A stretch of 64,000 bases of DNA, from positions 2,005,334 to 2,069,333 of the forward strand of contig MU004185.1 in NCBI GenBank assembly GCA_010093605.1. Reading direction: 5' to 3'. Positions 11,503 through 58,726 of the stretch are shown in pieces. Both the position numbers and the translations under genes were made by a program. The DNA is from Lophium mytilinum. Taxonomy: Eukaryota. Position 1 is the first letter of the stretch; every line of letters begins with the position of its first letter. Under the pieces are notes generated by a model. That model had not been told where the DNA came from. It ran no database searches and saw only the letters and a list, made by a program, of their open reading frames with translations.

Positions 11503-11706
11503 GCTGGCGGAGCGAGTTTTAATAACTTGTGTAGGCTCTCCTGCCAACGTTTGAGGTGCTTCGATGTGTTGTGTGGTTGTGGAAAAGTGATAGCTTTTGG
11601 TATAGCTGTGGAACAATGGGATGAGTTTCGATGATGGGGATCGGGGGATGTAAAGGTTGGAGAGGAGAGTGGAATGGCGTAATGTTTTGTGTACAGAGCG
11701 CTTGCT

Positions 11707-14700
11707 CTAGTATGGTTTGGAAGGATGAGTCGGCATCGATTGGGATAGCACTCTCGCGGCGATCTCGATTGCCTCTTCTGGGAGGCCTAGCCATTCTTAC
11801 GTTAGAGAAGTCGCGTTACTATGAGAGGAGGGACATACCGGCTACCCTGGCCACTTTCAAGGCATGAGACTGCCTATTGACTCCTTTTCGAAGTCTGTGA
11901 ACATAAGAGAAAGTCCCATCGGGTTCTTCTGCAACGTCTGTGCAGTAGCAACCCAGCGACTCGAAATCCTTGGTCATATCGGCGAGTGCATGGAAATGGG
12001 TCGCGAATAATGCACGGCACTGATTCACATTGTGAAGATGATGCAGACAGGCATAGCCGACTGCTACGCCGTCTTCGGGAGTGGTGCCGCGACCGACTTC
12101 GTCCATGATGACCTGACATAGTGAGCAGCTTTATCATGAGGTTCTAGAGAGTAGACTTACAAAGGAACGTGGTGTAGCTTGCTTGAGGATCTGAGCGGTT
12201 TCAAGCATCTCCACCATGAATGTGGACTGGTCTTGATACAGGTTGTCTGCGGAGCCAACTCTGCTAAACACCTTGTCCACCAATCCGATTTCTGCATACT
12301 CGGCAGGAACAAAGGATCCCGTCTGGGCCAAGATCGATATCAGTGCGTTCTGGCGAAGGAATGTGCTTTTACCGGCCATGTTGGGCCTAGCTAGCAATAT
12401 TAGTTTTGTTTCAGGTGAATTAATGCTGCCTACAACGCCTCATCATAGATCTGTGTACACTTCTCTGCCACCGCCTGGGGTACTTCATGGTGTATTCGAG
12501 ATTCTAAATCGGATGGAAGTTGGGCATTTTGAACAACTCGTTAACCCGTGGGTCCACCCTAGACAGCGGCAGAACGGTGTACACGGATGAGAAGTGTGTC
12601 CGTCGCTCCGGATTAGTTCTAGTGCGTTGAAGCACTACGAGCGGTGGCAAAGACGAGTACTCGGATCTATGACGTGCTGAAGAAGTTCGGACTCACCCGG
12701 TGATCAGCCAAACACGTTCATCGTCTCCTACTGCACAGTCGTTGGAGGTAAAATTACGACCCTGATCTCCAAGGCCAGCCTCAACAACTGGATGCCTTCC
12801 ACCAACGATGTTATGTGTCGTACTGCCGCCTGTTAGCTAAGATGTTGACGAAACACGAATCTGATTCCAATTACCCCGAATTCAAAATAGGCCGAACGAG
12901 ACTCTTTTCCAGAGCCAGAACCGCAAAAGAGCAAGCGACATCAAGCTCGTCCAACACCGCAGCGTTTCGTCTCAGCTTCACCAGGTTCTGAACCACCTCC
13001 GCGCGAAGGTCTCCTAGTGCCCTAGTCTCTTCTGATCGAATCCGAAACCTTGTCTCGTCAAGTTGCGTTCCCAAGTGTGTCCATTCTGGAAGGTGGAACG
13101 ATCGCGTTGATTTGGTGCTGCTGACACTCTTCGCGATTTGAGCTGCGGCACGTGCGACATCCTTCCCCTTGACATGACATATATGACCGAGGTTTGGGGT
13201 CCATTTCAATGTTAGACTTTCGGCACCTTGTGAGAATTAGATTTGATAGGATCGTTGAACAGGGTCTTTGTACTTAGACTCTTCTTGAGGCTGGACTCAA
13301 GCTCCGTTTTCTGTCGAGTGAGATGATCTAATGCCTCGTGCAATTTGGTCAGGCTTTTGCTGGCGCTAGGTGGGATTAGTCACTGCGGACGTTCAGATGA
13401 TATGAACCGCTATACCTTCGTCTCATGATCCAGATGTCTTCTCTACCGTCAGTTGCGCTTTTGAAGCTAGGCGCTATGGCGTTAGATTTTGGTCGGATTT
13501 TCTTTGGCATTTGCTTCAGGTCTTCTTCTCCGGCTTCTTGACCAAGCACCTCTTGAGCCATCTCAATTATTGCGCTCTCTTCGTCATCTTCAAGCCTGTG
13601 TCGCTCGGACAACCCGTCTTCGTCGATAGCTTCCAAAATCCGGGTTGCGAGCTTCATAGGTGAAACCAGATCAAACCGGTTAGACAGCGAAGAAAGACAC
13701 CCTCGGCGGCGTGTATCAGCTTCGGTTGCTTCAGCGTTCAATGGAATAGCGTTACGGGATGAAGAGTGTTCCGTCACCAGATTAGCGATGTCGGTAGTTC
13801 TGAAAATTGTTTTCGATAGTTCAACGAGGTCATCCGCATCGCCTCGGCCGAACGAGAACTTTTGAACCAGCCTGAGAGTGTCGAAAGTACGGCGGAGCTG
13901 GATAACGAGATCCTGCTGTAGTTGAGGATATTCTAGCATCTCCTCGACGAGATCGAGTCGATCATTGATGACAGGTAAGGACATCGAAGGCTCAGCTAGT
14001 AAGAGTTAGTAACTTTGTCTTCCTCAATCAGTTCCTTTCTAAAAGAAAGCAAATACACTTACTAAGTCTCTCAATTAGAAGTCGTGTACCGCTTTTCGTC
14101 ACAGTCTTTCTAAGTGTGTGAAGCAAGCTGCCTTCCTGTCGTCCATCTCTCATCGTCGTCCGAATCTCCAAAGCTCTCAAACTGTTCCTGTCGATGCTCA
14201 TAAAATTTTCAGGTTGGTGGCTGATTGGAGCTTGTAGCCTCGCCTTCGAGCCTTGTAGTTGCGTATTGACATAATGCAGTAGAGATCCACCAGCAGCGAC
14301 TTCTGCCGGACTAAAGTTCGTCGTGTCAAAGTCCTCTATCACATCTTCAAGCATCGGGATCCAGTCTGCGAGTGCGAGCTTCTGCCCCAGAGGCTCTTGA
14401 TAAGTGATAACATAACCATCCTCTTGGAGCATGGACACAATGCGTGACTCCCGTTGGTCTTTGAAGCTGCTGTCCAGAATAATCTCTCGTGGTCCGATTC
14501 GCGCAACAGCTGATGGTAGAGAGGCTACATCCGTACTTTGCGTGAGGAAATCCCCGCTTGAAAGATCGACCCACGCCAGGCCCACTTCTGTACGAGGTAG
14601 ATTCAGTACCGAGGGCACTTTGTCCGTACCAGGCGTATCTTGGACAGGACCGAGTGATTTGAGAGCTTCATGGTCAACATGGATGCTGAGCAAGTAATTG

Positions 14701-19906: not shown

Positions 19907-22900
19907 ACGTCTTAGCGGAAGAGAGTGACGAGTTACGAAGGTTTGGGACAAAAGACGAGACACACGAACGAAAGGGTCTCATTGGGCGGAGCTGAGGGAA
20001 CTTGACCTCGTCATCCCATGTCGGATGACGAGAAGAAAAGAGTCGGTTCAAGAGACTGAACTTACTCTTCACGGAAGTGCTTTGGCTACTCCATAGCTCT
20101 TTTGCTTGCATTGTCTATTTCCTGCTTTCTTTCAGTCGGTTTATGCGTTAGACGGGGCGGGACGGGGTTTGTCGTCTCAACCTAATTTCTCTATGATTCA
20201 ATGCACTTCTGACGGCATCTTTCATTTGTCACGCGGTGCTCACCTACGGCGTTCACATTGCAAAAGACGTGCTCGGTAAGAAGTTGGTGTGGAGGCACAT
20301 ATTAGTGAGTGCGAGCAGAACTTCATTCACCCGATACACTTGCCCGAATTTCCATGACCGTGACATTGCAGGCAGGCCACCCCCTACAGTGGTGTCGAGT
20401 GAGCAACTTCGAAGCCAAGCAGTGACAGATACGTGTGCCCAGACTTATGGCCTAGTACTGTACAATACCTCTGAGTTGCATTTCCTTCTCGAGCATCCAT
20501 GAGTGAGTCCGCTAATGTTCCAACTATCGATACCATATAGTTATGCGATTATCAGCACAGTACTGACCAAGAGGAGGTCGGACAACAATCGAACACCTAG
20601 CCATATGACATAGCTTATCATTGTGCTCCCACCTCGCCCAGAGTCTCCATGAGAGTGTTCTGAGATCGGGATTCCGCAGTACCTCTTGGGTTAGGCCAAG
20701 CCGCAAAAACCTTAAAGTGCGTGCAAAGCAATAAATATAGCATTATAGGAAACTCCCTCGTTTACATCCTCCATACCATAGCTACTCCTTCAAGATCATT
20801 CATCATTTATCATCTCCAGAATCGTCGGTTCAATCCCCATCAATACCACACCCGCAGTCCTGCACCTCGCAATCTTCTATCCAACAAGTATCAGAGCCAG
20901 CAATGGACCACCTCCGATGATCCACGTTCGATGGAACCTCAACTCAGCACATCAAGACACCCCTAGCATTTTGGGGGCCGGTCGGACTCGGGAGTGTCCA
21001 TGGTTCCTAGTCCGTGCACTTGTTCAAATGAGGCTGAGCACCTGGCCTTATATTCTGGACATGTGATACCGCTAAACATGTATAACACCAAGCCACAAAT
21101 CCTTGAACATTCTTACAAAAGTTCGGCAATAACCGTTCGCACCCTCGTTCTCTCCCGAGCTGACTGCGGCTCGCTATAAAGCAGTCCGAAAGCGGCTCGG
21201 GAATAGCTCTCAATATAGGCAACTCCTTGTGATCAAGAAGCGGCTAGTGTGGTCGCGTGGGAACAACACATTCCCGTGTGACGGCTCTGTGCACACTCTT
21301 CTGCCTCTCGACCCTTTCAGAGGCCTAAAAACATAAAAATCGGCTTTTGGAGCCATCTCGAAAACTCTCTAGACGATGTCGGAAAGCTTGCTCCATCTTT
21401 CAAAAGGAATATCACACATACTGACTGATATTTGGAATTGTACCGAACCCCTTCAAACGGTGGCTGGTAAGCGCTCATATGTTTACAACCAGGCATCATA
21501 AACCCTAGATCCTGACCCCGACAGCATGGCGTAGTACCCCGGGGTGACCTGAGTATCTACGATGGTCGACGATCTGGAGTGGCTGCCGGATGAGAGTAAC
21601 GTCTCGATAATTGCAAGGCACTCTCCTCTGCTGTCGAAACAAAGCGGTTTCCAAAGTTTGCTAACCAATACAAGTAAAATTCGCCCGCGAAGTGCCGGCG
21701 ATCAATTCGTTGGATGCTCATCCCTGCACGGCTAGAGTGACAGAAAAGGAAGGCAGACATGGTGTCTCCGTTTAAGGTTTCCCCTCCATTCAACTGCATC
21801 CACGGATAGTAGTGTAAGACCACGACGTCAAACTGCACGTTACTGCCCGATAATGTGCGGTATCAGGCCTTCTCTATAGCGTTTATTAAGCTCAGGTCGA
21901 AGGAAACCACTTTTATTCTCGGATCGCGCTCGTAAGGAAAGTTCAAAACGCCCAACCAGTTGCAATGATGGGATCTAGGACCCTCAACGCAGCCTATTTT
22001 CCAGGGTCTTTCGAATGCCGAGGAACTCATGCAATGCTAGCTGTCGATCAGGGTCATCTCCCGGTAGATGTAGGTACCGATTCTCCACCTAGCACGCACT
22101 GCGCGCGTACTGACCATTAGTGTGCTAGCAGCATCAGGAGAGCGATCGGATGTTCTTCTAATAGGAAAATAGGCCCACTAGCGCCATAATGTTGATTATA
22201 TCTCCTTCATTTATACCCCTGGCGTAGCACGGCTACCTTCCAGTTACTCTCACCGTGCCCGCTACATCTCCAGGTCGGAGTCTGGTGTGCAGTGGCGTGC
22301 GTCCCGTGTGGTACTCTTTCGTGGTTGTCTCTTAATCAAGCAGATGGAACGCACCGAATCCTTCGCGCATTCTCCACCTTTCAACACAGCCTTCTTTAGA
22401 GTCGGAGACGAAGCATCTTTTCGAGGGCCTGTTTCTACTAACGAACCGTGTGACTGGCCCCCACGTCTTTTTCCCGTCCTTCACGCACCTATTGCGGTCA
22501 GAAACTAGCACTGCTCCGATTGACGTCCTATATAGGACGTCCAGATTGCACAAGAAGGCGAATATGATTGTGCTGCGAGTTGCCGTAAGTCCTCATCGTA
22601 CACTCATCTTTCATTGCTTCGAGCACTTTAGAAGAAATTCGTAATTGGGAAACGGCGCGGCCGCATCGTTTTAGCCGCTCAAGCAAGTCGCCGGGCTACC
22701 CCAGGCGGCGCCTTCGCCGATGTTCGCATTTGCGCGAGCTCCGAGTAGAACGTTACGTTCCTCCAGTCTTTCCATTACGTCCTACCCCAGTCAGTCTTCC
22801 AATAGCCCCTACATATTTACCAAGCCACAATGCTGATCCTTGATAGAGTTCGATGTAACCAGAGCTCTATACCGGCCTGGTGTGGATGTAGGTAGAAGTA

Positions 22901-33311: not shown

Positions 33312-34199
33312 TTTGATGATGGTGGATGTCGAAAAAGCGGCCGACTCCTGATAGCTGGGACTTTCTTCCGCGTAAACAAGGCCGAGAGGCAAGGAGGCAA
33401 ACAAAGCCTCCGAGGGAGTAAGGGAATAGTAGCTATGAGTGGGGTCTGTGAGAAGAGGAAGATGCCGGTATGACGTTGGGCACACCGTACGGTGAATGTC
33501 AATGCCACGGGGAGGTACGGGGTGAGTCTTGTGCCTGTCCTGGCTGGTGACGACGGTTCCAACTCAAGAATCTCTTTGGGTGCGCTAGCAAAAACGGGTT
33601 ATTTGAAATCAATGCCGAGGGCAACCCGGTAACCCTTATCTATCCTACTCTAGAGCACATACCAGTTTAACACCGTCTGAGGTAGCCTGGAGCGCTATTA
33701 GGTGTGCCAAAGCTGGTACTTCATGAATAGCAATAGCATACTGAAGGGCCTCTAACGGTGCTAAACAATCATAAAAGTATTGGATATACTTCACAATTTG
33801 TAGATTACAAATTTCTACTGCTACTTATCTACTACGCTTCTTATAGCTGTACTACCTAGTAGGTCTAGTAGGTGCAACTGTCTGCCACTGCTTAGAGTAC
33901 TTCAAGAAGTTATAATATAGTGAGGGCTGCCTTCACGTGGTCAATCTCAGCCAATCAGCGAACACAGACCACCGGGAGGTATCTCCGTGTTTGAGAGGTC
34001 ATTCATTTGGTTCAACCTGCAGAAACACGGACAGGGGATGCTGTGCTGCTGACTGGAGTTTCGCGAAGACGAGATGAACTTAGAATTGGTATAATCTGGG
34101 ATATCAGGTTATACTCGAGAAGAGCCCTCAAGTCCCGTACCCACCAAACGCTAAGGTCTCAACATGCAGCGCTCGCTCATTACCATTCCTTCACCACAG

Positions 34200-45167: not shown

Positions 45168-46724
45168 CCTAGGGGACCGTCTTACTGATGCGCAATGGTA
45201 TAGAACAGACCCCAACGTTCAAATACGCGAGATGCTATACGGCATTATCGAAGTCGTCCATAATACCCAGGACATGACCCGTTTCCTTGTCGAGCCACAG
45301 CAGTAAGTCCTTGTAGTTGCATTCTCCATTAAAGGATACGGGGTTCTAATTGCCTGCTTTTTTCCAGTAATAAGATGACCACGATGGAGCAAATGGAGCT
45401 TCTCATACGCCAACAACAGGCTCTCGGACAAAGACTAGAAGAGCTTCACAAATCGTTGTTGGTGTCAGAACGACAATATCCGCCAACGGAAGACAACGAA
45501 ACCGAAAGCATTCGTCAACAACTATCTGTTGGCCAAAATGATTCAGCATCGATTGGTGAAAATGGCGAAGTCGATGATAGAACTCCAGCTGGGCGTGAAA
45601 ACGCGTAAGTCATACATGAACCTTTTGAAATAGGCTTCTGTACTGACTAAACTTCTTTAGAAGAAACGAGTATACGTCCTACGAGGAGATGGGCCTAATG
45701 CGTCCCATATCAGCGGTTGGTAAAGAAACTCAAGGGACGAGCGATACAGGCCCAATCGACAAACAACCTTAAATGGCAGGCGAAGACGAGGCATCCCCTA
45801 TAAATCCAGAGGGCATGAATATCCTCACAGCTTCGATCACTCCTGAAGCTTCTATAACGCCATCTGGAGCTGACAACTCTGGCCCGGCCCTCAAAACGGA
45901 ACCGGGCGGCCAAAAAGATTGAAACGCAGAATGATGCAATTGGGCACACCACCTGGAAACCTATTTCTTTTTCCAGCTATCGAGTTTTAGCTTCTGGTAT
46001 TCTAGAGCATGGACGCTTGTTATAATTTGCACATGACTTCGCGAGGATCTTGCTGTGGGATGTGATGCATGTAGAATAGTTCACGGTATTTCACGAACTA
46101 GAGGTATGAATTAGAGCCTTAGTCTGGGCTCAAAGATAGAACATTGAGGCGACTGCTGGGGGTCGAAGGAGTACAACGAGCCCGTAAAAGCTAGGCCTTC
46201 ATGAAGTGAATAAAATTCGGAGATGAAGATTAGACTTATCTTGCGCTATTCAAATTGTATTATATGATAAAATCACAATGCATGTATAGATAAATTCGTA
46301 AGAGCATCCCCGCTATGACCCGCCAGGCATGGAATCACATTAAATGGAACTCTCGCTTAGTAAACCGAGCCCCAACGTTATGAATTTTCCTGTGCTCCAG
46401 CATTTGTTAAATTTTCTGAAATTAAAGGGAGCTATAAGCGGGTGCTAGGAGACCACAGCGTAATTATTTCAAGTTATGCATCCTATATTGCGTGGTTGAA
46501 AGGTACCAAAAGTATTTCACTGCCCCCAATTTTGGAGAGTTCCATTTAATCTGATTCCATGCCTGCCGCATGACGTCTAAATGACCCCTCCCTCTCCAGT
46601 CCCAAACCATGACAGCTACAATGATCATTCGAAAAGATCTACATTCCCAAAACACATCCACAAACTTCTCGTCCTCTCCTCTCTACCCTCCTGAATTATT
46701 CCAAACCTCTCAAAAATCATCATC

Positions 46725-54171: not shown

Positions 54172-56546
54172 ATGTTCTCGAGAGCCATCCGCCAGTCGAG
54201 CCGGGTCGCGGCAATCTCTGTCTCGGGCAGAATTGCATCGGTAAGTTCATCCAATGCGCCTGCAATTGGCGTCCTGCTTCATCTCGGACCTGCCTGCAGC
54301 TTCGCTCTCACCTCATGGCCGACTACGGTTCGACGGTAGAGCTTCGTTGTGGTGCTGGCGCCGCTGGGCCCAAGGAGGGCTTTTTCTTCTCGAGCCGAGC
54401 ACTGACGCTTCACCATAGACCCGATCCATCCCGGCCGTTTACAACATCGCATCCAAGCAGGTTCGCAACTATGCCGCCGATGCGAAGGCGTCCCCGACCG
54501 AGGTGTCCTCGATTCTCGAGCAGAGAATTCGAGGCGTGCAGGAGGAGGCGGGCCTTGCCGAGACCGGCCGCGTTCTCTCTGTCGGGTATGTTTTGGATAC
54601 AACAACAGCATTGCCTCTGGCTTGCCATTGCAAAGGGACACAGCTGACAATTGGTGTCTAGTGACGGTATTGCCCGTGTCCACGGCATGGCCAACGTCCA
54701 GGCTGAGGAGCTAGTCGAGTACGTCCCAATATCAACAAACCCATTGCGGGCCACAGCATACTAACAGCTACACCAGGTTCGCGTCCGGTGTCAAGGGCAT
54801 GTGCATGAACTTGGAAGCCGGCCAGGTCGGTGTTGTGCTCTTCGGTTCTGATCGTTTGGTCAAGGAGGGCGAGACCGTCAAGCGGACTGGCGAGATTGTA
54901 TGCATTCCTCTTAAGCTCTCATTGAGCTCAGCTAACGCATTGTAGGTCGACGTCCCAGTCGGCATGGAGCTCCTCGGTCGCGTTGTCGACGCCCTCGGCA
55001 ACCCCATCGACGGAAAGGGTCCTATCAAGACCACCGAGAAGCGTCGTGCTCAGCTCAAGGCTCCCGGTATCCTGCCCCGTCACTCCGTCAACCAGCCCGT
55101 GCAGACTGGCCTCAAGTCCGTCGACGCCATGGTGCCCATCGGACGTGGTCAGCGTGAGTTGATCATTGGTGATCGTCAAACCGGCAAGACCGCTGTTGCT
55201 CTGGACACCATGCTCAACCAGAAGAGGTGGAACGCCGGCAACGACGAGACCAAGAAGCTCTACTGTGTATACGTTGCCGTTGGCCAGAAGCGATCCACTG
55301 TTGCCCAGCTCGTCAAGACCCTGGAGGAGAACGACGCCATGAAGTACTCCATTATTGTCGCTGCCACTGCTTCCGAAGCCGCTCCTCTCCAGTACATTGC
55401 TCCTTTGTAAGTAACGCTCGTCCCTCATGAGTAGAGATCAGAGTACTAACGCCATCACCAGCACCGGCAGTGAGTAAACCCCTACCCCGATGCAGGTGGG
55501 AACACCCACAGCTCTTAGTCCGTGTACAATTCCTTGCCACTGTCAGGGGTGCCCCAATACAAGGTCAAAATTGCAAACGAGTCGGTTTTGAACAACCAGT
55601 AACCTTGTTCGGCCACCCCAGACAATGGTAAGGAAGGGTCCACAGACTATTGATGTGTTGTCTTAATAGGGTTTCGAAAGACTGTACAGAACTTTGCTGA
55701 CTTTATCTCCAGCCTCAATGGGGGAATGGTTCCGTGATAATGGAAAGCATGCTTTGATCGTGTTCGACGATCTTTCCAAGCAGGCTGTTGCCTACCGTCA
55801 AATGTCCCTCCTGCTCCGTCGTCCTCCCGGACGTGAGGCTTACCCCGGAGAGTAAGTGATTAACGTGAATCACATCCGACTTATCCAATATCTAACGCGT
55901 ATACAGCGTTTTCTACCTTCACTCTCGTCTCCTCGAGCGTGCGGCCAAGATGAGCGACAAGCACGGCGGCGGATCCCTGACTGCCCTCCCCATCATTGAG
56001 ACCCAGGGTGGTGACGTGTCTGCCTACATTCCCACCAACGTCATTTCCATCACCGACGGCCAGATCTTCTTGGAAGCCGAGCTTTTCTACAAGGGTATCC
56101 GACCTGCCATTAACGTCGGTCTCTCCGTGTCCCGTGTCGGTTCCGCCGCCCAGCTCAAGGCCATGAAGCAAGTCGCTGGTTCCCTGAAGCTCTTCTTGGC
56201 CCAATACCGTGAGGTCGCTGCTTTCGCCCAGTTCGGTTCCGATTTGGATGCTTCTACCAAGCAGACTCTCAACCGTGGTGAGCGTCTGACCGAGCTTCTC
56301 AAGCAGAAGCAATACTCCCCCATGGCCGTCAACGAGATGGTTCCACTCATCTACGCCGGTGTCAACGGTCTGCTCGACGATGTCCCCGTGGCCAAGATCC
56401 TCTCGTGGGAGGCGGACTTCCTTGCCCATCTCCGAAGCAACGAGTCTGATGTACTGGCTCAGATCGACCGGGAAGGTGCCTTAAGCAAGGACCTAGAAGC
56501 GAAGCTGAAGGACATCATCCAAAGCTTCACCAAGTCTTTCGTGTAA
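54172..56546 (+). CDS. ATP1: Mitochondrial F1 ATP synthase subunit alpha
   Basis: Presequence [55 protein letters not shown]. Seven introns, including an 8-nt microexon 55462-55469 giving APF-TG-TSMGEWF. Confidence 0.97.
55470..55712 (+). mobile_element. 243-nt hairpin-forming spliceosomal intron, candidate introner-like element (homologous to MSH1 intron 12387-12696)
   Basis: GTGAGT donor, GCTGAC branch, CAG acceptor; nearly the whole intron folds into one rod; arms align with the MSH1 intron arms. Confidence 0.6.
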
Positions 56547-57253
56547 AAGAAGGATGAACAGTGTATTTCTTAACAAAGCTTTGGTGTCAGTTATGCTGAT
56601 GGTCATCCGCATAGATGTGTAATATAGCATGCGTCCCCCCATCGGCTGTCTGAATATGGAACTCGTGTCTCGCATGGCAACGTGCTTTTAAAATCAAAGT
56701 CCGCCCACTACTCATATCCGTTTTATCCGCTGTTGATATGCATCTCGATTCTTTTGGAAGCAAAATGTGGATGCTGCTAGGGCCCTGTATTTATGCTCAA
56801 TCTCCGTTTTTCGTTCATCTTTACTCTATTCTTATCGTGACATAATCAGTGTTGTCCGCCACGTGGGGCATGAAAAATGTGGTACACTCAACCCGCATTC
56901 TTCTCCTTATACACCTGGCTGCCGCCGTTTGTGGTGCTTCAATGCATTTTTGGAAATCCGAAAGAGATAATCACTCTTAGCTTTGGGCTATCTGAAAACT
57001 TGCTGACGCACTCCAAGCAGTGGTAGACAGGTGTACACACGGCCGCGAAGACAGATCTTGATGAATGTGCCACTTTTTCCTGCCCGGCGTGTCCGCCTGC
57101 CAGAAATCGTGACCTGGCAATACTCACCGCTGTTCTAGATGTCCACATGGCACTCCAGTGTGAAGGTTGGTACCTTTGGTCATACCTATATCCAATCGCT
57201 TCGCCTCCGTTTACCAGATCTCGATCTGTCCTACATAACAGCACGATAGTATA

Positions 57254-58726
57254 ATGCCGACTACAAACAAATCTTATATATACAGCGAGAGGATCTCCGA
57301 AGCCGACCTGGAAGACATGCCCAATACTCTATTGCGCCTCTCACAGCGCCTGCAGGCATCGGTCCGCCGAGGAGGCAGCGACAGCGGCATCTCACGATCG
57401 AAAGATGCAGCTCTTAGGAAGGCGGACAAGGGAAAGGGGAAAGCGGCCGATCCAGAGGAATCCGCCCAGCCAGTGCAAGCCGTCGTAGTGCCTGAGCTCG
57501 CACACCTGGTTCATGCCACTGGATTGCAGACGCTGAGTCCGAAGCCCAAACGCCCGAGGAAGAACCCTCTCGCGTTGACTTTGCTACCAGTTCCCCCCAA
57601 CCCAGACCTCCCAAACGGTGCTTTCAATCCCCGAGCTATCAAATCGTCAAAAGGCAAGCTACCCGAAACTCGCGACATATCCTTAGGAGACGGCATCGCC
57701 GGTCCATCAACCCAGCATCCCTCCACCGACCCAACCCTCTGGCCACCCACCCACGACCCCACCGTCGACGGCGCCGTCAGCAAGAAAAATAAACCTACCG
57801 GCGACTCCACCTCCTCATCCCCATCCCCATCCCAGACCCCCACCCAGCAGCACAACGAGAACGACAACGACGAATACACCCTCCTCCCCCCTTCAACCAC
57901 CTCCACCACCTCCCCCTCCTCCCCCACCACCCGCCTCCACCAAACCCAATCCACCCTGCACACCGCCAACGCCCTCATCCGCGCCCTCCACACCTCCGTC
58001 GACGCCGAGCGCGAGGCCAAGGAAGACGCCCAGCGCGCCCTCGGCTACTACCTCCCCTCCCACGACCACACCGCCGAGCACCTGCACGCCGTGCTCGCGC
58101 GGCAAGCGCGCCTGATCGCGGCGCGGGACGCCGAGATCGCGGACCTGAAGGAGGCGCTGGACTACGGCAATAAGCTGCTGTCTGGGAGCTACCGGCGGCA
58201 GTGGGAGATGTGGCGCTGGGTGGATGGGCTAATAGCGGCGGAGGTGGCGGCGGAGCGGAGGCGGCGGTTTGGGGGGTTGGGGCGGTTTGCGTCCACGCGG
58301 AAGAAAGGGAGGGGGGATGATTTGGCCGCGGAGGGGGGCATGCCGGCAGGGTGGAGCTGGGAGAGTTTTGGAGGGGAGGGGGAGGAGCCGCCGGGGTTGC
58401 CGGGGTGTGGGGAGGTTTTGGATGGGGTGGAGAGGGAGGAGAGGATGCGGGAGGTGTTGGAGAGGGTGAAGAGGAGGGAGATGGGGTTGAGGAGGATGGG
58501 GGAGGTGTTGGAGAGTGGGGAGGGGAGTGTGGCGTTTTTGCCGTATGAGGAGGGGGAGTTTGAGGGGCTGAAGGTGCCGAGGACGGAGTTGGAGAAGATT
58601 GAGGGTATGTGTGCGGAGAATGTCAAGACGATGAAGTTGGGGGTGGTGAGGATGGTGAGGTTGGTGGAGAGGATTAAGGGGAGGGGGGCCACGGGGATTC
58701 AGGAGCCGGAGGAGAAGGTGATGTGA
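57254..58726 (+). CDS. Hypothetical protein (490 aa, low complexity plus coiled coil)
   Basis: Long single ORF; extreme C-rich first half and G-rich second half; no family recognised. Confidence 0.65.
   Translation: MPTTNKSYIYSERISEADLEDMPNTLLRLSQRLQASVRRGGSDSGISRSKDAALRKADKGKGKAADPEESAQPVQAVVVPELAHLVHATGLQTLSPKPKRPRKNPLALTLLPVPPNPDLPNGAFNPRAIKSSKGKLPETRDISLGDGIAGPSTQHPSTDPTLWPPTHDPTVDGAVSKKNKPTGDSTSSSPSPSQTPTQQHNENDNDEYTLLPPSTTSTTSPSSPTTRLHQTQSTLHTANALIRALHTSVDAEREAKEDAQRALGYYLPSHDHTAEHLHAVLARQARLIAARDAEIADLKEALDYGNKLLSGSYRRQWEMWRWVDGLIAAEVAAERRRRFGGLGRFASTRKKGRGDDLAAEGGMPAGWSWESFGGEGEEPPGLPGCGEVLDGVEREERMREVLERVKRREMGLRRMGEVLESGEGSVAFLPYEEGEFEGLKVPRTELEKIEGMCAENVKTMKLGVVRMVRLVERIKGRGATGIQEPEEKVM

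Follow-up and report, generated by a model that had tools for sequence, protein, structure and literature searches.

A dispersed palindromic repeat as the most likely source of a hairpin shared by ATP1 and MSH1-like introns in Lophium mytilinum

Two nuclear genes of the fungus Lophium mytilinum, one for the alpha subunit of ATP synthase (ATP1) and the other for a MutS-like protein, each carry a long intron with a related hairpin inside, which raises the question of what kind of sequence the two introns have in common. The genes lie in a 64,000-nt stretch of contig MU004185.1 (assembly GCA_010093605.1, positions 2,005,334 to 2,069,333), referred to below as the window, whose own numbering is used throughout. 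An initial annotation, made from the letters of the window, proposed either an old family of introner-like elements (ILEs) with selectively maintained structure or a regulatory RNA or mirtron shared by the two genes. The analysis reported here leads to a different answer: the shared hairpin is most likely one copy of a palindromic repeat that is non-coding, confined to one lineage and built like a miniature inverted-repeat transposable element (MITE). Copies of this family differ greatly in age, some being very old and others very recent, and are found in introns, in DNA resembling untranslated regions (UTRs) and between genes. The account we favour, with moderate confidence, has a MITE-like DNA transposon landing in introns that the ATP1 and MSH1-like genes already possessed.

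Both hairpin sequences are found at the positions that the initial annotation gave, and they are homologous, with 64% identity between the introns over 143 nt (blastn E 1e-7 within the window) and an identity between the two copies of about 60–65%. That modest identity is what speaks for a chance resemblance of two GC-rich hairpins, an explanation with next to no probability that is refuted by the blastn match and by two kinds of model search. A hidden Markov model (HMM) of the arm was trained on eight arms, those of three full copies and one solo arm, in a gapless alignment; it finds ten arm matches with E < 0.002 in the window (the eight training arms together with 33875–33905 and 11526–11563), as opposed to none with E ≤ 1 in 362,116 nt from 80 related ATP1 loci, which come from fungi in metagenomes and have exon identities of 77–88.5%. 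A covariance model (CM) built from four full copies detects the copy at 33650–33782, which was not among them, with E 1e-7, scores the MSH1-like copy, a member of the training set, with 138.8 bits over 12447–12589, and has no match in 250,782 nt from the 42 longer loci of those 80. Judged by these searches, the family is restricted to the source lineage.

The blastn comparison of the introns already has additional matches near 56.9 kb and 11.2 kb. In the whole window, five full copies and three to four solo arms were counted, alongside weaker candidates; those at about 21283–21484 and 20415–20444 (E 0.06–8) were excluded from the count. Two of the roughly nine family loci lie in introns and, the context of 10101–10243 aside, the rest follow stop codons or lie between genes. 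Since further copies are present in the window, the mobility suggested by the initial annotation stands. Two of the solo arms, at 11237 and 11526, share the same orientation at a distance of about 290 nt and bracket a small minus-strand open reading frame (ORF) at about 11340–11500 that resembles a short membrane peptide.

The anatomy of the element is displayed by a young full-length copy downstream of ATP1, which has the structure and the behaviour of a recently active MITE-like DNA transposon. Along model positions 2–225 it aligns with its own reverse strand (E 4e-14), and 21 of its outer 25 nt are matched (p < 0.001), giving it terminal inverted repeats. Both of its ends are bordered by the same 8-bp direct repeat (56853–56860 and 57090–57097); its chance occurrence is estimated to be of the order of 1e-3, with a single copy to judge from. 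In a contig of a related species, about 5–8% diverged in this region, the young copy is missing: position 56857 is joined to 57106 with four letters between them, about 7 nt short of a letter-perfect empty site. The family has been active after the split of the source and the related species. When contigs from the source run were matched to a 3.4-kb stretch at a likeness of at least 80%, 130 pieces were found, of which 2, 7, 38 and 83 fall at ≥99%, 95–99%, 90–95% and <90% likeness, respectively. Summed depth over the young copy reaches 3834–8909 compared to 158.8 beside it, although summed depth is not copy number, and a similar pile-up occurs in the related species (8101 versus 146 beside). 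One other source contig is identical to the young copy over 118 nt (56920–57037). An RNA contig runs through the young copy, which is therefore transcribed as UTR or by read-through. For the copy in the ATP1 intron, in turn, only about one to two extra contig-equivalents are found at ≥80% likeness, and this copy looks old. A separate observation, at window positions 56908–57037, is that a single 18-kb contig of the source run carries another two copies, spaced about 1.2 kb from each other. One is the copy with 118 identical nt, and a duplication or transposition in the very recent past is suggested. An open frame of 495 amino acids (57239–58723) that lies a short way downstream of the young copy has no match in Pfam or NCBIfam.

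The two host introns differ in how they are documented. On the minus strand, at about 15.5–11.7 kb, MutS domains I–V are recognised on the flanking ORFs, bacterial-type MutS models match the gene, and a MutS1-type NCBIfam match begins at PNMAGKST, a domain picture that fits MSH1, so that the gene is called MSH1-like here. Its reading frame runs to VWLITG, is followed by a 310-nt interval bounded by GT and AG and continues with PNMAGKST; the interval can therefore only be an intron within the Walker A motif, with borders taken from the frame and the GT..AG ends and not from RNA. In ATP1, located on the plus strand at about 54.1–56.5 kb, RNA-derived contigs from a near-identical strain place seven introns, each with a GT..AG joint. 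One contig joins 55406 to 55713 with the eight letters of a micro-exon between them (depth 13067), while a second contig retains the sixth intron (depth 174). The element-bearing ATP1 intron is thus real and spliced, as the initial annotation had assumed, but its borders had to be corrected by the RNA contigs (Table 1) and a micro-exon placed before it. At 243 nt (ATP1) and 310 nt (MSH1-like) the element-bearing introns are indeed unusually long compared with the 48–178 nt of the six other ATP1 introns, whereas the GTGAGT at which both were said to begin is just the donor consensus. Outside the palindrome there are 24 + 56 nt (80 in total) in the MSH1-like intron and 46 + 62 nt (108 in total) in the ATP1 intron, and these parts contain the donors, branch points and acceptors.

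Table 1. Positions of the palindromic copies, solo arms and host-gene features in the window
Feature	Position	Strand	Details
Old degenerate full copy	10101..10243		arm HMM weak; in CM training set
Solo arm downstream of MutS-like stop (~11707)	11237..11274	+	E 1.9e-7; in training set
Solo arm downstream of MutS-like stop	11526..11563	+	nhmmer E 1.1e-3; same orientation as 11237 arm
MutS/MSH1-like intron	12387..12696	-	310 nt, phase 2, splits Walker A (LITG / PNMAGKST); 80 nt without palindromic copy
Three-arm palindromic copy	12443..12672		arm B 12443-12487, inner arm A' 12551-12588, outer arm A 12628-12672
MSH1-like loop homologous to ATP1 loop on window + strand	12488-12550		loop alignment
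Old degenerate full copy	33650..33782	-	between dynamin-like and FSH1-like genes; CM 36.5 bits, E 1e-7, non-training
Solo arm, intergenic	33875..33905	+	nhmmer E 1.4e-4
ATP1 introns	54240-54417, 54585-54660, 54719-54776, 54898-54945, 55407-55461, 55470-55712, 55852-55906	+	RNA contigs
ATP1 micro-exon	55462..55469	+	8 nt, between 55-nt intron (55407-55461) and element-bearing intron; RNA-confirmed
ATP1 element-bearing (sixth) intron	55470..55712	+	243 nt, phase 1, 10 nt past Pro codon of ..QYIAP
Palindromic copy in ATP1 intron	55516..55650		42-nt arms 55516-55557 and 55608-55649, 79% complementary, 50 nt apart
Young full-length copy	56861..57089		229 nt, palindromic end to end; ~315 nt past ATP1 stop, before next ORF

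Within the MSH1-like intron, the outer arms of 45 nt are 78% complementary and lie 140 nt apart, and a third arm between them (12556–12588) shows 76% complementarity to this 3' arm as well, so that the simple two-arm hairpin of the initial annotation has to be replaced by a structure with three arms. The additional stretch at 12551–12627 consists of this inner arm and a 39-nt spacer, which suggests a partial duplication or a half-element nested inside the palindrome.

Could the hairpin be a functional structured RNA, such as a regulatory hairpin or a mirtron-like precursor of small RNAs, selected in two nuclear genes for mitochondrial proteins? Both introns fold more stably than shuffled sequences: none of 100 shuffles equals the MSH1-like one at -97.0 kcal/mol (z -3.25), none of 200 the ATP1 one at -83.8 kcal/mol (z -3.68), and a further fold test gave z-scores of -4.85 and -5.8 for the 243- and 310-nt introns, so that the values range from -3.3 to -5.8. 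In addition, the differences between copies that were first described as compensatory form a genuine pattern: in a four-copy alignment, 7 of 23 helix pairs are changed on both sides within copies against a shuffled mean of 3.4, a count reached by 8 of 500 shuffles, and slid controls give 0–3. Yet the antisense strands fold better than the transcripts in both cases, with minimum free energies for sense and antisense of -76.9 and -85.0 kcal/mol (ATP1) and of -97.0 and -102.2 kcal/mol (MSH1-like), the covariation term of RNAalifold is unfavourable (+1.06), and co-variation of the arms is expected of any palindromic repeat with subfamilies. Each copy would have inherited its matching arms from a palindromic progenitor, or the arms may be kept matched at the level of the DNA, and because either suffices to produce such differences, they do not require selection on an RNA. 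The comparison with Rfam 15 brought no relevant family either, as there is no match with E ≤ 1 in the interval 55300–57300 and the sole match in 11000–13000 is a sub-threshold snoRNA model (19.1 versus 50 bits) outside the element. Furthermore, the element also occurs in intergenic DNA, and it is absent from the ATP1 site of the related species and from the other fungal ATP1 loci searched.

The orientation of the two copies bears on the same question. The loops of the ATP1 and MSH1-like copies match only if both are read on the plus strand of the window (score 13, p < 0.001, versus 8, p = 0.16), and blastn prefers this arrangement as well (46.8 versus 35.4 bits). As the two genes are transcribed from different strands, the copies are probably opposite in orientation relative to transcription, and the sense-against-sense alignment on which the initial annotation relied probably does not pair homologous orientations. 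With orientation, antisense folding, the Rfam result and the absence from relatives all pointing away from it, a shared regulatory RNA appears very improbable.

A different limit on what the introns share is set by their flanks. The young copy aligns to the intron copies over model positions 38–190 of 229 only, and outside the core palindrome the intron flanks show no likeness to each other or to the outer arms of the young copy in any orientation (all p > 0.1). A homology between the intron ends and these outer arms that had been seen by eye was rejected, since no pair of flanks beat the shuffles. Of the old introner family proposed initially, the multiplying element is therefore retained and the introner-like character is not, in view of splice sites, branch points and flanks that are unshared, copies outside genes, inverted ends and the 8-bp repeat.

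According to the favoured reading, the two intronic copies would be old insertions into introns that predate them, and they would be spliced out together with the host intron; being removed by ordinary splicing, they would therefore do no harm. The hairpin may even bring the splice signals of the lengthened intron closer together and thereby aid the tolerance of insertions. Mobilisation would be of the cut-and-paste type, with the transposase supplied in trans. A pre-existing intron is supported by the fact that introns near the ATP1 site are widespread: 76 of the 80 related ATP1 loci are informative (positions in seven loci were read by eye), and 13 of these 76 have an intron at offsets 7–10, within 3 nt of the site in the window. 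In addition, repeats inserted into regular introns are a known source of false introner-like calls in fungi and were excluded as false positives in the study concerned, as described in the available part of its text (PMC3609843).

Several observations weigh against this reading. Fifty-four of the 76 informative loci have no intron in the 12-nt stretch between the Pro and Ser codons, and 33 of these 54 are on contigs of at least 5 kb, although some of the short contigs among the intronless loci may be cDNA. The window has offset 10 itself in common with only one of the 76 loci (L027). As the shortened ATP1 site of the related species (see below) indicates, an intron was either gained or lost right there, and the whole element-bearing intron may be what differs between the species. 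No flanking duplication is recognisable around the old copies, with the flanking repeat and the ends documented for one copy only, and for the two old copies in introns no definite ends can be assigned. Finally, the orientation call depends on a 44-column loop alignment, and it is only probable because the young copy aligns equally well to the MSH1-like copy in both orientations.

An alternative is that the element itself created introns, as a DNA-transposon-type introner in an ascomycete: an insertion into the exon 8 nt downstream of an existing ATP1 intron would have made both the new intron at offset 10 and the micro-exon, and a second insertion would perhaps have split the Walker A codons of the MSH1-like gene. 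The splice signals would then have been recruited from sequence next to or derived from the element and have diverged since. In the related species, 70 letters replace the 314 nt of 55404–55717, which in the window comprise two introns, the micro-exon and exon edges; 70 letters leave room for one intron of about 54 nt and not for two. The intron comparison called for at the outset has thus yielded a difference, one intron versus two around an 8-nt micro-exon, and a single event, the arrival of a new intron at a distance of 8 nt from an old one, would account for the micro-exon. The rarity of offset 10 among relatives, the activity of the family after the species split and the fact that the two introns are the longest seen here and consist mostly of palindrome are in line with this scenario, and transposon-derived introns are established in other eukaryotes according to the available portions of two reports (PMC9860276; PMC12130899). 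Against it stand the lack of detectable homology of the flanks with splice sites and branch points, either between the introns or to the ends of the young copy, the absence of a visible duplication at the exon-intron borders on reading the sequence, intergenic copies without an intron function and the probably opposite orientation of the copies relative to transcription in the two genes. Moreover, the ATP1 copy looks old, so the related species may simply have lost an intron.

The positions of the introns among relatives bear on the same question. The F-T-G codons of ATP1 carry introns at offsets 7, 8, 9 or 10 across fungi (among them in L008, L010, L013, L042, L053, L070 and L074), and the supported sister pairs L013/L010, L070/L074 and L042/L053 differ by 1–2 nt; together with the scatter of the 13 loci this fits an old, wobbling intron. 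The pattern of positions as such is compatible with an old intron that slides and is often lost or with a hot spot for gains. The ATP1 tree, tried as a judge of intron ancestry, brought no decision, because the window groups with no clade that has support and because no fewer than 11 changes of the trait are required over the poorly resolved tree on which the 13 loci are scattered. The upstream ATP1 intron position of the window, at offset 2, is found in none of the 76 related loci. Long introns at the ATP1 site in eight related loci are not hairpins (z -2.4 to +1.3), and the offset-10 intron of L027, considered as a homologue of the window intron or element, gave no significant result (p 0.05–0.4). 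On balance, the creation of these introns by the element is considered unlikely, although it carries more weight than a selected RNA, and insertion into pre-existing introns is retained as the preferred account.

Apart from this family, the window contains a second palindrome at 46321–46568, upstream of a gene for NAD(P)H-hydrate dehydratase, with terminal arms of 34 nt that are 94% complementary and 180 nt apart; it looks like a second, unrelated MITE-like family.

Taken together, the palindromic family is routine repeat biology, tolerated in introns and spacers, and two cautions follow from it: co-varying arms in a palindromic repeat family mimic selection for an RNA structure, and a repeat that sits in an intron mimics an introner-like element. 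At the same time, with its micro-exon, the single intron of a relative and position shifts of 1–3 nt, the ATP1 site is a concrete test case for a transposon-born intron in an ascomycete. If true, the creation of introns by this element would run counter, in a fungus, to the published view that ascomycete introners have neither inverted ends nor target duplications.

How, then, does the element compare with known systems? With the fungal ILEs (van der Burgt et al., 2012; Collemare et al., 2013; PMC3609843) the two introns share a length beyond that of regular introns, a stable predicted structure, related copies in unrelated ascomycete genes and decay in sequence and length. According to the published descriptions, from which the element is set apart here, ILEs are near-identical high-copy introns with canonical signals that are longer and more structured than regular introns (PMC3609843), and fungal introners have neither target duplications nor inverted ends and occur preferentially in genes (PMC9860276). 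The likeness among ILEs spans the near-identical intron including its splice signals, whereas here it is confined to an internal palindrome of 60–65% identity; copies of the element also lie outside genes, and the young copy ends in inverted repeats and is flanked by an 8-bp direct repeat.

Introners of the MITE type in algae and other eukaryotes (Micromonas, Aureococcus), so far as the accessible text of the reports goes, are transposons with inverted ends and target duplication inside spliceosomal introns in either orientation (PMC9860276; PMC11282704), and in these respects the element resembles them. In those introners, one splice site lies in the element end and the other stems from the duplication, so that intron borders are element borders; here the borders lie 24–63 nt beyond the part of the element that can be recognised, and they differ from copy to copy. 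The internally symmetrical (stw)introns known from Hypoxylaceae (Fekete et al., 2021; PMC8469720) are likewise fungal, have inverted repeats of 45–55 nt and a possible double-stranded intron RNA, and have proliferated to new positions. As portrayed in the available part of that study, however, their repeats form the two ends of the intron, include the splice signals, lack flanking duplications and are reported as introns, in contrast to the internal palindrome found here, whose family has a flanking duplication and intergenic copies.

With MITEs, which are non-autonomous class II DNA transposons, the element has much of its anatomy in common, even though termini and duplication are documented for only one copy and the window commonly shows solo arms and also a three-arm copy, which is unlike MITEs. 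A target duplication of 8 bp is typical of hAT-type elements, and this rule is the one basis for suggesting a hAT affiliation. Like MITEs, the element is short (about 135–230 nt) and non-coding and has many dispersed copies of differing age; it has inverted-repeat ends, here stretched to a near-complete palindrome, with a flanking 8-bp duplication at one copy; and it differs in presence and absence between related species and is frequent in introns and UTRs.

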